Shown here: one piece after another, positions 6,883 through 39,178 of the stretch | How positions within the stretch are numbered: position 1 is the first letter of the stretch | How the letters are laid out: each line of letters starts with the position of its first letter | Assembly (NCBI GenBank): GCA_951406725.2 | Contig: OX597828.1 | Span: 72,168,001 to 72,232,000 of the forward strand | Source: Octopus vulgaris | Lineage: Eukaryota | Length of the DNA: 64,000 nt | Direction of reading: 5' to 3' | Program-made: the position numbers and the translations under genes | Notes under the pieces: generated by a model | Database searches by the model: none | Seen by the model: the letters and a program-made list of their open reading frames with translations, nothing else | What the model was told of the DNA's origin: nothing

Positions 6883-6899
6883 TACTGAGAATGTGTTAA

Positions 6900-7260
6900 G
6901 ACTGTAAAGGAATGATGCAGCCTTGCTTCACTGGGTGTGTGGCATTTATGTGCATGAGCGACCGAGAGGCACAGATGTACTGAGAGGAAAACTAGGTGCC
7001 GAGTGTAAGAGGAATTGGAGGTAGAGTATGAGAGAGAGGATTGCATTGTTTTGGAATGGTAATGAGTTGGGATGAGAACAGATGAGTGAAGGAGTGCCTG
7101 GAATGGAAGAGGAAGACCGAGGAAGCTATGGGAAGAAGTGGTGAGAGTTGATCTCAGAATGTTGAATCTTACAAAGGAGATGACTAAGAAATTCAACAAA
7201 TGGCAACTTGTCGTGATTGAGGAGGCTCAGCTAATGTCTAGCAGCATGGGAAAAAGGATG
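6900..7260 (+). mobile_element. RTE-clade LINE 3' fragment (decayed)
   Basis: GRGRPRKLWEEVVRVDLRMLNLTKEMT at ~7105-7185. Confidence 0.65.
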
Positions 7261-8547
7261 TGAAAAGGACAAATGACAATATTGTCATTACCAGTGACGT
7301 CACCGACGCCATTTAATGACTGCCAACCATTGTAAACCTTTTATAGGGGGTGCAGCTGTGTGTATTTACTAATAAGTGTCTATATTTTGTTAGTCATTTT
7401 TCTAAATGTGGTACTATGAGTTTTTAAGTAGTATATTTGGTGTTCTGTTGTTTCGCCGTCACACATGATACTCTGAGTGTTGCGTTTAGTTGTGAGGGAA
7501 ATGTTTTTTGTGAATGGGACTAACGTGACGTGTGTGTGTCTGTAGTCATAATTTGAACTTCTCCATCTGGAAATCTATTATGTCTATGCAGTGAGCTGTG
7601 ACACAACAATAGATAGGACTTTATGAAATAATTCAATTGTGGCAAGTGTGTAATTTATTCATAACTTCTACAAATGACACAAATTTTCTTTCATTTTTTT
7701 TTGTCAGAGAAACTTAACACCGATCAAGTCAAATATTAAGAAAAAAAGCGTTTTAAATCTTTTAATTTTAATGCAGCATGTCCATAAGAGATGTTATCTT
7801 GGGACAATTACTGCAGCAACAGGACGATCAAACTGTGTATATACATTAACCCTTTAGCATTCAGATGATTCTGCCAAATGTTAGCTTCATTTATTTATAT
7901 ATATAAAAATCTTGTATTGTTATGTAGCTTTGAGATTTCAAAGATATGATTGTTTATTATAAGAATGGCATTGCAAGGTAAGTGTGAGAGGCTGGATCTA
8001 CCCTGTTTGAACATAAAACAGATAGAATATTTGGGCCAGATATGGCTGGTTTAAAGGGCTGCAGAACTAGCACGATGCAATGTATAACAGGGCTGTATAT
8101 TTTGAACTGCAGTTACAATTCACCTAATGAGCCATCTACCCAATTTTAGTCACAGAGTATGGGTGAACCTGAGGCTACAGAAAATAAATAAACTACTTCT
8201 ACTACTACTACTACTACTACTGCTACTACCTATCTGTAAACATATTCTTTAAACTAACTTCAGATTCCATTGGAATTTTTTGCTATTTTTTTCACTTTTT
8301 TATTTTTAAATTGTCTTTCATTATTTTTATGAATATTTCGTCTTTATGAATATTTCAGAATTCTACGGACTTCACATGTGATTCACCTCAGTTCCATGTT
8401 AGCATCCTATCAAGATGCCAATCTCCAAGATGTCAATGATTTCAGATTTTAGTTTAAAGAAAACTCTTCAACCAGCCACACAGAATTTTGAGAATGAAAC
8501 AGTAAGCCACGGAAATGTTATCTTGAGACAGAACTCGCAAAACCAGT

Positions 8548-8763
8548 ATGCAGGACGAGAACTTCAGAAAACCTAAACTATTACCTTGTTTTCCTGTAAT
8601 ATCACCAGTATGGTTTGGTCAGGAACCCTCCCTAACAATGAGTGCTAGTTCTCCTTTAATCCCTTCCTTTCCAGCTCTTCGCTGTTGTTCCTCAATGTCC
8701 ATTTCTACCACTTCTGTTCCCGTTATTAGCTTCAGCTTCCCAAACCGGACTGTCACACTATGA
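8548..8763 (+). promoter_or_regulatory. Candidate upstream ORF (71 codons) whose TGA overlaps the DUSP ATG (ATGA)
   Basis: ORF-track ORF 8548-8763. Its stop TGA is 8761-8763 and the main ATG is 8760-8762. A likely acceptor tatttcag at 8351-8358 would place it in the 5' UTR. Confidence 0.45.
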
Positions 8764-8906
8764 GCGTTCTGCCATTGAAAGTTATGGACAGTGAACCTCC
8801 TGTCCAAGTCACTGACACTGACCAAAACTTAGTCACACAAGAGGTTCCATGGAAATTGATGGAACCCCATGGATTAGTAGAAATAATATCGAATCTTTTA
8901 GAGAAG
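8760..8906 (+). CDS. DUSP16: DUSP8/DUSP16-like dual-specificity MAPK phosphatase, coding exon 1 (MSVLPLKV...IISNLLEK)
   Basis: ATG at 8760, 49 codons, then donor AAG|GTAAGT at 8907 (phase 0). Joins in frame to the next exon to give LEK|VLIIDSR, matching the DUSP8/16 N-terminus (TEKVLLIDSR). Probably a single orthologue of both vertebrate paralogues. Confidence 0.85.
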
Positions 8907-9920
8907 GTAAGTTACAACAGCTTCTCTTTTATTTTTCGTTGTTGCCCTACAAAGTAAATTCCTGGCTTTTATTTATTCTCATTCACCACATTACTGAGCA
9001 ACCATTTAGCATAAAAGGGTTTTCTCTTTTTTTTTTTAAACAAGGTTAACCCTTTCATTGCCAACCCACTTAATATTCATCATCATCATCATCATCAGTG
9101 TTATCATATAATGTCCATGTTCCATCCTGGTATTGGCTGGATGGCTTGACAAGATCTGAAATGTCTAAGAACTGCATTGTACTTCAGCATCTCCGTTGGC
9201 ATGAGTTTTGCAGAGTGGACTGGGTACCTTTGTTTTGATGCTACCAACGCCAACGCCAATGAGGTTGCCATGCAGCTTGCAAGATTGCAAAGCCTGAGAG
9301 AGGCTGCTTTATGCTTGGAGATGAGGGCAAAAATATAAGAAAAGAGGTCAGAACAGAACTGGTCTCTTGGTGTAGAGGAACTATGTTCCTACTCAGGTTT
9401 TAGAGGAGAGAGTGGGAGCGATGATTTGGTGAAGCTGCAAAGAGATAAAAATACTGGCTTTAACATCATAGGTCAGATGAGACTTAGTTGAAGCAAAATT
9501 TTCTATGGCTGGATGTCCTTTCTGTTGCCAACCTTCATCTTAGTCTGTTGTACATTGAACAGCCTGGATATACTTGTTGCAAGTGACTTAGTCTTTCCTG
9601 TTGTTATTACCACAAAAAGTGCTCTGATGAACCTCCTCCCTGAGCGCCAGATCACTTTGTTCCACTTTGTGCCACTTTGTGCCACTTTGCCTGACTAAGA
9701 AACTCACATCCTCTTCATCCAAATGCCTTTGTGCTTCCATGAGTGAGGAAGGCTTTCTCTGGTCGTAGCTGACCGTCTTTGGAACTCTCTTCCACCTCAA
9801 TGCATTTGTCCTTCTCATGTTGTTTTAAAGTCTGGTACTTATTAAATCAATCTCCTTTGCTGGACTGCTATGTTATGGGTACGTAAACAAACCAACACAG
9901 GTAGTCAAAAGGTAGAGGGA

Positions 9921-14368: not shown

Positions 14369-16648
14369 ACGTACCACCAGACCAGGGATCCTGGCTGGTT
14401 CAATTCGATTTCGATTTCGCTTGCCCCAACATGTCATCGCAAGCAAGGGGGTTGGCATGGGTGCCTGTTGTACGGTCAGATTGGTGTATTTTACGTGCCA
14501 CCGGCACGGAAGCCAGTGGAGGCGGCGCTGGCATCGGCCACGAGTCGGATAGTGCTTTTTACGTACCACCAGACCAGGGAACCTGGCTGGTTCAATTCGA
14601 TTTCGCTTGCCCCAACATGTCTTCGCAAGCAATATATATATATATGTATATGTATGTATGTATGTATTTGTGTTTCTGTATGTATATATGTATTTGTGCG
14701 TCTGTGTTTGTGCCCCCCCACCATTGCTTGACAACCATTGTTGGTGTGTTTACGTCCTCATAACTTAGTGGTTCAGCAAAAGAGACCACTAGAATAAGTA
14801 CTAGGCTTACAAAGAATAAGTCCTGGGATTGATTTGTTCAACTAAAGTCAATGCTCCAGCATGGCTGCAGTCAAATGACTGAAGCAAGTAAAAGAAATAG
14901 AAGAAATATGTGTATGTATATTTGTGTTGGCCCCTTACCATTTGACAACCATTGTTTGTTTGTTTACATCCCTATGACTTAGTGATTATCACCAAAAGAA
15001 ATCTTTAGTAGGAGCTGTGGGATCATCATCATCATCATCATACGTCCTCCTTCCATGCTGGCATGGGTTGGACGGTTTGACAGGAGCTGGCCAGACAGAA
15101 GCCTGCACCAGACTTCTGAGTCTCTTTTGGCAGCAGGGTTTTTACAGGCTGGATGCCCTTCCTAACACCAACCACCCAGCAGGGTGGACCAAATATATAC
15201 CATATCAGAAATAGAGTATTGAAGTATTGTATTAATAGATTATTAAAAATGTTATAGTAGAATAGTAGTACCACTAGAGATATGATTAAAGATATAGAAG
15301 AGTAGGTACTACGAGAGGTATCATTAATAAGATATATAGTACGGTAGGTTCTATAAAAGCTATTAAAACAGACATGGAATAGTAAGTGCGATTTGAGGTT
15401 ATCGTTAAAAGGATAGTATATTCTTGATAGTTATGAGAGATATTAAAAAAATGATATATTTTTAGATAAGAAAATCTATTCTGTTTGTTTATTGTTTTAA
15501 GAATATTTTTGCATTATTTTATTATCAATATAAATGGAATATGTTTATTAATAATATAGATTAAATGTGTTTTGTATCTTGATAATTTTTACAAATGTTT
15601 CATGAAGTGGGTTTTTTTTTTGTATTTATTAAAGAAATATTTGTCTTTGCATAATATTGGTTTGGTTCGGTTCTAAGAAATTGATTTATATTTTTTTCAC
15701 TTTTATTAATTCTCACCTTACCAAATGTTGTCTCACTAAAGTTGGAAGTTATTCTATGTAAAGGAATCTTAAATATGTTAAAATCAAGAATAAATATTCT
15801 TTTCCACTCCAGGTACAAGGCCTGAAATTTTGGGAGAGGGGGCCAGTCAATTAGATCGACCCCAGTATGCAACTGGTACTTAATTTATTGACCCCAAAAG
15901 GATGAAAGGCAAAGTCGACCTTGGCAAAATTTGAACTCAGAATGTAAAGACAGACGAAATACTGCTAAGCATTTTGTCTGGCGTGCTGATGTTTCTGCCA
16001 GCTCGCCACCTTAAAATACACTCTCCTACTCTAGGCCGAAGGCCTGAAATTTTTGGAGAGGGGGCTAGTTGATTACACCGACCCCAGTGCATAACTGGTA
16101 CTTAATTTATCGACTCTGAAAGGATGAAAGGCAAAGTCGACCTTAGTGGAATTTGAACTCAGAACATAAAGACTGACAAAATACCACTAAACATTTTGCC
16201 TGGTGTGCTAATGTTTCTGCCAGCTCGCTGCCTTCAAAATCAAGTATAAATATTGCAGTAATAATATACAAGATGGCAAGCTGGCAGGATTGTTATCATG
16301 CTGGGCAAAATGCTTGGCGGCATTTCATCTATCTTTACATTCTGAGTTCAAATTCCATCAAGGTTGACTTTGCCTTTCATCCTTTTGGGGTCAATAAAAT
16401 AAGCACCAGTTAGCCCTTTCGATACCAACCCGGCTGAAACCGGTTCTGGCTCTGTAGTTCGAATATCTTGTTTCAAAAGTTTTGAATTAAAGTCTTCCAC
16501 CAAACACCTTAGTCACAAATTATGTTTCTAGCACCAGCTGAATGATAACTAAGTTATTTCACTAAATTCTTTGAAAGAAAAACAGAGCATCTCAACAGAA
16601 ATATGATAACAAAATGGTTAAAATATATAATAGAGAAACAATTCTTAA

Positions 16649-31019: not shown

Positions 31020-31803
31020 TGTAGGTGGTAAATTGGAAGATCCAAAATGCTTAGTGGCATTTCTTCTGCTTTACGTTCTGGGTTCAAATTCTGCTGGGGT
31101 CCAGTTTTCCTTTCATCCTTTCAGGAGTCGTTACTATAAATACCTGTTGAATACTGGGGGGGGGGGTCGATATAATCAACTCATCTCCTTATTCTGAGAT
31201 TACTGGCCTTGTGCCAAAATGTGAAACCGATATTTCTTCCAGCTTTCTATGTTCTGATTTCAAACACTGCTGAGGTCAACAAAGTACTAGTTAAGTACTG
31301 GGGTCGACATTACGGAGTCACCCCTTTCCCTGAAAACTGCTCACCCTCTGCTTAAAAGTGAGACCCTTAATGGGTGAGACCCTTAATGGAATTTCATCTA
31401 TCTTTTTGTGCTGGGTTCAAATTCTACCAAGGTTGACATTGCCTTTCATCCTTTCAGGGTCAATAAAATAAGTACCAGTTAAACACTGGGGTTGATGTAC
31501 TCGACTTATCCCCTCCCCCAGAATTGCTGGCTTTGTGTCATAATTTGAAACCATTATTATTATTATTAATACTAATATTATTATTATCAAGGCAGCAAAC
31601 TGGCAGAATCGTTAGCACGCTGGATGAAATGCTTAGTGGTATTTCACCTGCTGCTACGTTCTGAGTTCAAATTCCACCGAGGTCAACTTTGCTTTTCATC
31701 CTTTTGGGGTCAATAAATTGAGTACGAGTGAAACACCGGGGTCAATGTAATCAACTAGTCCTCTCCTCCCAAATTTCAAGGCCTTGTGCCTATGATAGAA
31801 ATG

Positions 31804-31844
<41 letters not shown>

Positions 31845-32960
31845 GGTGGTGAGCTGGCAGAACTGTTAGCATGCCAGCTGAAATGCTTTGCGGTATTTCG
31901 TCTGTCTTTACATTCTGAGTTCAAATTCTGCCGGGGTCAACTTTGCCTTTCATCCTTTCGGGGTTGATAAATTAAGTATCAGTGAAACACTGGGGTCGAT
32001 GAAATTGACTTGTCCGCTCCCTCAAATTTTCAGGCCTTGTGCCTTTAGTAGAAAGGATTATTATTATTATTATTATTGAAAGCTCATGGCCTTAGTGATT
32101 AAGGTGTTGCACTCACGATCGCAATATCATGGTTTCATTTCCTGGACTGGGTGGTGCATTGTGCTCTTGAGCAAAACACTTCATTTCACGTCCCTCTGCA
32201 ATCACTTTGACACCTGACGACGCATGGCACACTGTGCATGTGTTCAGGTAATGTCGATTTGATGAAGCAAGTAAAAGCTGTTGTGCAACTCATAAGCAAA
32301 TTATTTGTGCAGATTGTTTGGCAAAAGAAGTTGAACACTCGTTATGTTGTCTTCAACAGGAGAGTCCATCGTTATTATTATTATTATTTTACTTGGCGAG
32401 CTGGCAGAGTTGTTAGTGTGCCAGGCAAAAAGCTTAGTGGCATGTTGTCCACCTTTACGTTCTGAGTTCAAATTCCACTGAGGTCCACTTTGCCTTTCAT
32501 CCTTTCAGGGTTGATAAAATAAGTACCAGTTACGCACTGGGGTCAATGTAATTGACTAGTCCCCCCACTTGAATTTCAGGCCTTGTCTACAGTAGAAAGG
32601 ATTATTATTATTATTACCTCTGCTTTAGTGAAGGTAAAGGTATTGTTTTCAGTTGTGTTTGTTTGTTTGTTTGTGGACAAGATATCCCAAGAACTGCTGG
32701 AGGGATTCTGATGAAACTTTCGGGGATGTTTGGCCTTGTGACTGGCACAAACTGATTAGATTTGGGGATTGATCTGGTACCAGGCAAGGGTTCTGGATTA
32801 TTTTTCTTGTTTTTTTTTTTTACTTAATTCTTGAGATTGGTCTGGTTCAATTTTAGTATTCTTGTTTGTGAGAGCAGATTTCAGATATTCTCATTTTAAA
32901 AATCCTCTCTGGCTAATCGTTGCTGTTGCTTTGCTGGAGATTTGTGCACTCTGAATGCTC

Positions 32961-35730: not shown

Positions 35731-36016
35731 TGAATTATTATTCCATTCCAATTGTTTTTATTATGAATGAACATACAAACAACCATTAACATAATATATA
35801 TATATATATATATATATTTCTTTATTACCCACAGGGGGCTAAACACAGAGGGGACAAACGAAGGGATTAAGTCGATTACATCGACCCCTGGTACTTATTT
35901 AATCGACCCTGAAAGGATGGAAGGCAAAGCGGAATTTGAACTCAGAATGTAACGGCAGACAAAATACCGCTGAGTATTTTGCCTGGCGTGCTAACGATTC
36001 TGCCAGCTCACCACCT

Positions 36017-36554: not shown

Positions 36555-36557
<3 letters not shown>
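36340..36557 (-). mobile_element. Non-autonomous mariner-like element
   Basis: TIRs TGAGAGGCTGCTGAAAAGTTCCTGGCTTT and AAAGCCGGGAACTTTGCAACATGCCCTTG, flanked by TA. Homologous to 6735-6882. Confidence 0.7.
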
Positions 36558-36625
<68 letters not shown>

Positions 36626-36630
36626 GTGTG

Positions 36631-36704
<74 letters not shown>

Positions 36705-36794
36705 CGGAGAAAACAATTGCAGCGTGGAAGGTGTTTGTAAGCCATTTAAGAAACAAACAAAACCGTTCGATTCACTTCAACATTTAAGTTTAAT

Positions 36795-36843
36795 TTGTCA
36801 AAATATTTTCGTCGCTTTGAAACCGCGACCTGTTCACTGACAA
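36795..36843 (-). ncRNA. Hammerhead ribozyme-like motif, G3-C8 core variant (left arm)
   Basis: UUGUCA-GUGAACA-G-GUCGC(GGUUUCAAA)GCGAC-GAA-AAUAUU-U/UGACAA. Confidence 0.7.
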
Positions 36844-36862
36844 AAATATGCAGCACGGATTA

Positions 36863-36910
36863 TTGTCAGTGAACAGGTCGCGGATTTTAGCGACGAAAAT
36901 ATTTTGACAA
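36863..36910 (+). ncRNA. Hammerhead ribozyme-like motif, G3-C8 core variant (right arm)
   Basis: UUGUCA-GUGAACA-G-GUCGC(GGAUUUUA)GCGAC-GAA-AAUAUU-U/UGACAA: stem I 6 bp, stem II 5 bp, palindromic stem III. Confidence 0.7.
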
Positions 36911-36990
36911 ATTAAACTTAAATGTTGAAGTGAATCGAACGGCTTTTGTGTGTTTCTTAAATGGCTTACAAACACCTTCCACGCTGCAAT

Positions 36991-37040
<50 letters not shown>

Positions 37041-38271: not shown

Positions 38272-39178
38272 TTCACCTAAACATACCCCGCATAGTGTAC
38301 AGAGAAGAAAAAATGTTTCAATTGAAACCAAGCCCCACCATATTGGTGACTGAGAGAGTATAAAACATTTCAAAGGTGTACCCCTATTTTAATTCAGTGC
38401 TGTTGTAATGACCCAGACCCTTACCAACCTGCTGACAATTAATGAGATCATCTGTCAGATACTAGATAATGTATATCTGTGTGTGTGTGTGTGTGCAGAG
38501 GGAGAGAGTGGACTGGCTTGAATTGTTGACTAGTCTTGCCTTTACACTGTGTTTCATGGGTTTTTCTTCTCTGTAAACAGATAGATGACAAGTTTCTTTT
38601 GGTACTAAAATACAGGCTTCTTTCACAACTAGAATGGGTAGAGATTCAGTTTTTATAATACTTATTTCTTTACTACCCACAAGGGGCTAAACATAGAGGG
38701 GACAAACAAGGACAGACAAAGGGATTAAGTCGATTACATCGATCCCGGTGTGTAACTGGTACTTACTTAATCGACCCCCCGAAAGGATGAAAGGTAGTCA
38801 ACCTTGGCGGAATTTGAACTCAGAACCTAACGGCAGACGAAATACCACTAAGCATTTTGCCCAGCATACTAATGATTCTGCCAGGTCACCGCCCAGTTTT
38901 TATAATACAATGTTAACTGTAGTTTGTTGTTATGTACTGTATAATGAGTTGTGGTACTGACTGTGTTTAGCTTGTGACACTGACTGTATAGTACACCAGT
39001 TTTCAAGAAGCATTGCCTGATACACACACACACGTATATATGGTTGAGCGGACAAATGAAATAAAAAAGCACTCAACACATTTATTTGGAGTTGCATATT
39101 TTATTATTTAAAGCAGTTTTGAAGTTTTAAGCCAGATGGAACTGGATCAAACTGCTTTAAAAGGTAATATTGATAAGA

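Follow-up and report, generated by a model that had tools for sequence, protein, structure and literature searches.

Head-to-head pseudo-LTR stubs of a Penelope-like element with hammerhead motifs and a natural G3-C8 core pair in the Octopus vulgaris genome

The 64-kb window, by which we mean the whole stretch of 64,000 nucleotides analysed here, contains a foldback of two inverted arms flanked by (TA)n, and the arms are identical in 124 of 130 alignment columns (Table 1). A sequence-only reading had described this layout, and its boundaries of 36715 to 36991 hold for the arms; the full element is slightly larger. The right-arm stub comprises a 5' leader, the hammerhead motif, the 5' UTR and codons 1-10 of an ORF, and the left arm is 5'-truncated ~12 nt further in than the right one. 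Loop II holds four of the six differences between the arms, as had been noticed; this pattern does not reflect local selection on stems, as the two arms match different subfamilies. The short segment beyond the left arm, at 36705..36714, likely consists of the first and last few bases of the tail, with the middle gone. Short elements that recur elsewhere in the window (15817-16240, 31411-32077, 35810-36015 and 38658-38893) presumably belong with the SINE-type repeats of octopus, which they resemble.

Table 1. Features of the foldback and its flanks, in window coordinates (pLTR, pseudo-LTR; PLE, Penelope-like element)
Feature	Position	Strand	Remarks
Left arm	36715-36843	-	aligned arm span
Right arm	36863-36991	+	aligned arm span
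Whole foldback element	~36705-36991		junction 36847/36848
Right arm, untailed pLTR stub	36848..36991	+	loop II GGATTTTA (young type)
Left arm, pLTR stub of older subfamily	36705..36847	-	loop II GGTTTCAAA
Hammerhead motif, right arm, minimal type I, G3-C8 core	36863..36910	+
Right stem I	36863-36868/36905-36910	+	TTGTCA/TGACAA
Right core GTGAACA	36869-36875	+	G3 36869, C8 36874
Right extra G	36876	+
Right stem II	36877-36881/36890-36894	+	GTCGC/GCGAC
Right GAA	36895-36897	+
Right stem III palindrome AATATT	36898-36903	+
Right U17, predicted cut site	after U36904	+
Hammerhead motif, left arm, G3-C8 core	36795..36843	-	G3 36837, C8 36832
Left U17, predicted cut site	after U36801	-
ORF start, right arm	36961..36991	+	continues into RT + GIY-YIG in full-length copies L067 and L193
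ORF start, left arm	36715..36745	-	ATG 36745-36743
Likely PLE tail remnant	36705..36714	-	from comparison with tailed copies
Left flanking microsatellite (TA)n/(CA)n/(TG)n	36557..36702		insertion target
Right flanking (TA)n microsatellite	36994..37040

Each arm has the make-up of a minimal type I hammerhead, with stems I and II, an extra base after position 9, a G10.1-C11.1 pair, GAAA, a UH site and a palindromic stem III. Positions 3 and 8 form a Watson-Crick pair (G3-C8), and the core reads GUGAACA rather than the literal CUGANGA. The MFE structure of each 58-61 nt monomer consists of stems I and II (z -2.9 and -2.6). A scanner that accepts any Watson-Crick 3-8 pair found exactly two matches in the window, one in each arm, and one match in total in 100 dinucleotide shuffles of the whole window. 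The type I assignment made from the letters and the position given for the predicted cut, after U36904, both agree with these results. An Rfam scan of the window motif gave no hammerhead match; it is uninformative, since a canonical-core relative gave no hammerhead match either.

A double hammerhead is predicted at -25.4 kcal/mol, ~2 kcal/mol less stable than two monomers (-27.6), and the best cofold at -29.5. The read-through transcript of the locus is predicted to form a hairpin of -206.8 kcal/mol, in which the opposite arm would sequester the ribozyme, as had been proposed. As this transcript would fold into one long hairpin, ribozyme activity of the window copy itself is unlikely.

The arm is a dispersed repeat with thousands of copies in (TA)n, and the flanks of the copies confirm the (TA)n targeting that the locus had suggested. 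By walking upstream from the copies, we traced a parent element with a 3' UTR of ~1 kb preceded by an ORF with reverse transcriptase (RT) motifs, a CQSNCAVC linker and a GIY-YIG domain. The arm lies ~1.0-1.6 kb after the ORF, at 96-99% identity, in 17 of 20 longer stretches fetched around ORF matches. A 985-aa open stretch has YVDD and matches GIY-YIG (PF01541) at 25.6 bits (Pfam cut-off 22.6). Pfam RVT_1 did not match the protein P0001 and matched homologue P0002 only below the cut-off; two homologues carry database names that say reverse transcriptase, and the best named homologue is a protein of Octopus vulgaris (54%). Two copies, L067 and L193, have an arm ahead of the ORF as well, whose internal ATG opens a frame that continues into the ORF. 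With the arm present before and after the ORF and supplying an in-frame start codon, we conclude that it is the pseudo-LTR (pLTR) of an autonomous element. The pLTR holds the first 10 codons, whereas the tail reaches ~codon 30. The stubs share 95-99% identity with the pLTR of copies that have the ORF, and L064 represents a long version of the same inverted structure. The arms are almost certainly pLTR stubs of a Penelope-like element (PLE), the origin that the sequence-only reading had assigned to them. That reading had further assumed a non-autonomous Penelope or retrozyme family; the element has full-length autonomous copies, and the foldback is an ordinary inverted-pLTR-plus-tail insertion. 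In one long F1 copy, the inverted arm is interrupted by what we take to be a mariner-like transposase insertion (L031:5960-7225).

The single ORF with RT and C-terminal GIY-YIG endonuclease, the pLTR with the first codons, the optional one-end tail and the inverted 5' copy place the element among EN+ PLEs, and its layout agrees with the published one (PMC3846280, PMC8557442). The Neptune/Nematis-type EN+ PLEs (Craig et al. 2021, PMC8557442; Arkhipova et al. 2013, PMC3846280) are reported to have the same ORF organization with a CX2-5CxxC linker, the same pLTR with TATA and Inr-like motifs, the same tail and inverted 5' copy, and microsatellite targets, whereas their tail is 30-40 nt long compared with ~55-60 nt in the octopus element. 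We apply the Neptune/Nematis-type label provisionally, from the linker (CQSNCAVC in P0001, under the definition of PMC8557442) and the (TA)n targets.

Three related families (F2, F3 and F4) were found in the 2.8-Gb genome through protein similarity or, for F4, through DNA similarity to such a match, and in all three a hammerhead-shaped motif occupies the corresponding position ahead of the ORF. Counted together with re-fetched loci, the motif matches contain C3-G8 in 45 of 46 cases in F2, canonical C3-G8 in 4 of 4 in F4, and U3-A8 in 17 of 18 in F3. C3-G8 is also the core pair of a metagenome relative (L304, 41% protein identity), in which stem III is palindromic and stem I is 5 bp long. Stem II covaries among the families as well (GTCGC/GCGAC, GTCAC/GTGAC, GTTGC/GCAAC). 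Among 10 aligned natural copies, the 3-8 pair is always Watson-Crick (CG in five, GC in four, UA in one). Two-sided changes affect 10 of 15 pairs in these copies, as against 1-4 in slid controls and with none of 500 shuffles as high; the 10 rows represent five lineages, copies inside one family not being independent, and in this alignment (A3) the L304 row and stem I of F3 are misregistered.

The covariation check proposed at the outset, made here across related families, supports the compensatory nature of the pair, and G3-C8 is very probably a true swap. Parsimony in this unrooted comparison suggests that G3-C8 is the derived state. Selection on source elements would have kept the 3-8 pair Watson-Crick while its identity changed. 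Core decay is nevertheless tolerated in the clade, as all 46 F2 matches carry C instead of A at position 9 of the core (L031:1968-2018 on the minus strand, L114-L143, L164-L173). F2 is young and abundant (open frames of ~1,310 aa; 9,380 first-look candidates), with an imperfect palindrome in stem III; F3 (L214-L233; 2,451 first-look candidates) has a 4-nt palindromic stem III and a stem I of just 3 bp. Other type I hammerhead-like motifs occur in unrelated repeats (L128, L132-L134, L047, L075, L089 and L101), where loop II is of the GCAATA type and the palindromes read ACCGGT or ACGCGT; the core pair is C3-G8 in some and U3-A8 in others.

Exact G3-C8 18-mers occur 6,616 times genome-wide (reversed control, 0). 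The same 18-base context holds other cores in 232 (G3-G8), 168 (G3-A/U8) and 236 (non-G3) copies. Among the first 100 non-G3 copies listed, one has a C3-G8 core and eight have C3, which gives a C/G transversion background of ~19; the G3-G8 copies, which are dispersed, lie ~12-fold above this estimate. Such an excess indicates that sources with a mismatched core still made copies. Older backgrounds carry 22 of 23 G8 copies and 15 of 29 C8 copies (p = 0.0005), the young marker being found in the remaining 1 of 23 and 14 of 29, and private changes are more numerous in G8 copies (p = 0.025). On a tree of 52 of 60 sampled copies (eight were too short and were dropped), clustering of G8 copies was not significant (14 changes; 40 of 500 shuffles as low), so neither a single G3-G8 lineage nor an ancestral order is supported. 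The G3-G8 copies could represent either a relic intermediate or dead sources that arose repeatedly. U3 with G8 was seen in nine of the first 100 non-G3 copies listed, which exceeds the expectation for independent mutations and possibly marks another older core state. Loose-end sequences of three sequencing runs under two organism labels (X1, X4 and X15) carry the same GTGAACAG core, and the variant is therefore likely not limited to one assembly.

The 20-mer past the predicted cut site is present in >10,000 copies (8,412 + 1,972 + 133). Copies that start at this site make up <1%, at most ~2 times the control position. A base other than T stands at position 17 in 133 copies, where 11-16 of 30 classed by hand are junctions; at the control position 5 nt upstream, the corresponding values are 129 copies and 6-9 of 30. 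No clear peak of genomic 5' ends was found at the predicted cut site relative to this control. At a second control, 3 nt downstream, the count was dominated by 1,972 copies of a subfamily variant in which a wobble keeps stem I. Contigs of four sequencing runs, which are unable to show ends, contained no end pile-up and no splice joint.

In the hammerhead, G8 is reported to be the general acid, and G8C costs ~10^5-fold unless partly rescued by C3G (PMC8495972). PLE pLTR minimal hammerheads, with an extra base and a palindromic stem III, are described as having low activity as dimers (PMC4209133). In the green anole's Poseidon element PAc (Frangieh et al. 2024, PMC11167929), which likewise has its hammerhead near the ORF start, the ribozyme needs protein, and engineered C3G/G8C partly restores its cleavage. 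For the octopus motif, we lean slightly towards measurable cleavage; the natural G3-C8 core is likely to be a weak cleaver, acting as a dimer or with protein help.

Alternatively, a motif of hammerhead descent may no longer cut, its fold and 3-8 pair being kept as a 5' UTR structure or a protein-binding site, or simply inherited. The amplification of G3-G8 copies, the lack of a clear peak of 5' ends and C9 in the sister family F2 would all fit this explanation, and the PAc ribozyme is reported to be dispensable for insertion in vitro and to leave no RNA-seq ends at its site (PMC11167929). However, the 3-8 pair is a tertiary contact of the catalytic core that has stayed Watson-Crick through two different double changes, and the youngest subfamily class is nearly without G8 (p = 0.0005), so we consider complete loss of cutting unlikely. 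A stronger version of the cleaving motif is possible, if doubtful: the G3-C8 motif would be a natural hammerhead that is active and has spread to thousands of copies, and the genome would preserve its route of origin from C3-G8 (sister families) through mismatched G3-G8 (older copies) to G3-C8 (fixed in the youngest).

We interpret the foldback, with a probability of roughly 0.7, as a dead head-to-head insertion of two pLTR stubs of an autonomous PLE, each with a minimal type I hammerhead homologue whose natural G3-C8 core likely cleaves weakly, as a dimer or with protein. The upstream limit of short copies, sampled by downstream words, is sharp, as just 1 of 60 runs further upstream. Their 5' ends accumulate 17-20 nt upstream, frequently together with an additional G, which suggests a start ~18 nt ahead of stem I. 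Directly in front of AGATGCAGCACGRA stands G in 1,039 copies, C in 870 and A/T in 615; these counts include 750 long copies, which have a C or T of their own there. Untemplated 5' G in L1 and SVA insertions has been attributed to cap copying (PMC3287187). TATATA stands at exactly -30 in 38 of 42 long copies, a match that could be due to chance because the 3' UTR is TA-rich. The putative start site resembles a splice acceptor too; with splicing in mind as a source of the extra G, we saw no GAG-GT donor by eye in the 3' UTR of L193.

A scheme of the insertion can be proposed from these features. The mRNA would begin with a cap at the A of AGATGC, ~18 nt ahead of stem I, and would likely be copied through the uncut ribozyme. 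The protein of the element may nick both (TA)n strands, and reverse transcription could start inside the ORF at ~codon 10 or ~codon 30. A pair of short cDNAs, each copied from its own uncut RNA, would then be end-joined, leaving one tailed and one untailed arm. In PAc, two RT start sites inside the ORF similarly give a tail, the target is AT-rich with both strands cut and extended, and uncut RNA is described as the main template; the octopus element differs in its CX3CxxC linker and in a hammerhead that lies wholly before the start codon (PMC11167929). At L009:1250-1500, an F1 5' piece with the extra G breaks off 3 nt beyond the predicted cut site; the unrelated sequence joined to it leads to a zinc-knuckle-like ORF, possibly through a template switch onto another retroelement.

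Exactly one tail is present in 33 of 37 doublets, which is the usual head-to-head form. Eleven doublets are informative as to which arm lacks the tail, and in 8 of 11 this is the arm whose 5' end is complete; 3 of 37 doublets, the window included, join different loop classes. The untailed complete-5' arms and the mixed loop classes favour two RNA templates over snap-back of a single cDNA; a later second insertion could also produce the doublet pattern. Snap-back priming on a single cDNA or on an antisense template would be consistent with the short microhomologies and small palindromes at many junctions and with the same loop class in both arms of 34 of 37 doublets, and self-priming on an antisense template has been proposed for such palindromes (PMC3846280). 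A tail absent from the template could not, however, be gained in this way, yet it is the complete-5' arm that lacks the tail in those eight doublets. The arms of the window come from different subfamilies, a mixing for which a later second insertion or gene conversion could also account. We therefore judge a single-template origin improbable.

It is very unlikely that the stubs form a separate non-autonomous, retrozyme-like family that spreads via its own short or circular RNA. Short copies do outnumber long ones (>10,000 vs 750), one array of 16 head-to-tail units exists (L032), and animal retrozymes are reported to derive from PLE pLTRs (bioRxiv 10.64898/2026.07.22.740005), but the stubs have no sequence of their own beyond that of the pLTR of ORF-bearing copies, they end at two tail positions with junctions that vary by locus, and the window copy is inverted, not tandem. 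Non-LTR retrozymes (PMC7229834; bioRxiv 10.64898/2026.07.22.740005) share with the octopus element the type I hammerhead, the palindromic stem III and the PLE pLTR origin; they are tandem arrays of hammerhead units without a coding parent of the same sequence, whereas the locus here is an inverted pair with an ORF-bearing, autonomous parent. The L032 array (6899-9589) is retrozyme-like in layout, its pLTR units of ~170 bp sharing one common junction, and was probably amplified as DNA; short arrays resembling it occur in L154 and L157. A MITE or foldback DNA transposon was rejected, as ends and junctions vary by locus, arms occur solo and a retroelement parent exists.

Among known hammerheads, those found in the pLTRs of metazoan PLEs (Cervera and de la Pena 2014, PMC4209133) are of the same minimal type I, from which the octopus motif differs by its GUGAACA core with G3-C8. 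All rows compared in their supplementary Fig. S3 (file 2 part 2 in full and a few rows of part 1) have C3 or U3, and none has G3. A natural U3-A8 core has been described (PMC4209133, PMC3088659), and the natural core variants of Perreault et al. 2011 (PMC3088659) thus share 3-8 covariation with the octopus families, while G3-C8 is not named in the accessible part of that paper. G3-C8 is in print as an engineered variant (PMC11167929, PMC3884650, PMC8495972), including the PAc mutant, whereas in the octopus element it is the natural state. We found no natural G3-C8 core in the literature covered, a scope that leaves aside the PLE variants of Lunse et al. 2017. The natural G3-C8 core appears to be new, in an insertion architecture that is ordinary for PLEs.

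Descriptors fixed on CUGANGA undercount ribozymes. If the G3-C8 hammerhead is active, surveys keyed to CUGANGA would have missed a whole hammerhead class, and swapped cores may be present in some Penelope-like clades that have been reported to lack hammerheads. The presence of G3-C8, C3-G8 and U3-A8 in one genome offers a test series for whether PLE hammerheads are kept for cutting or for their fold.
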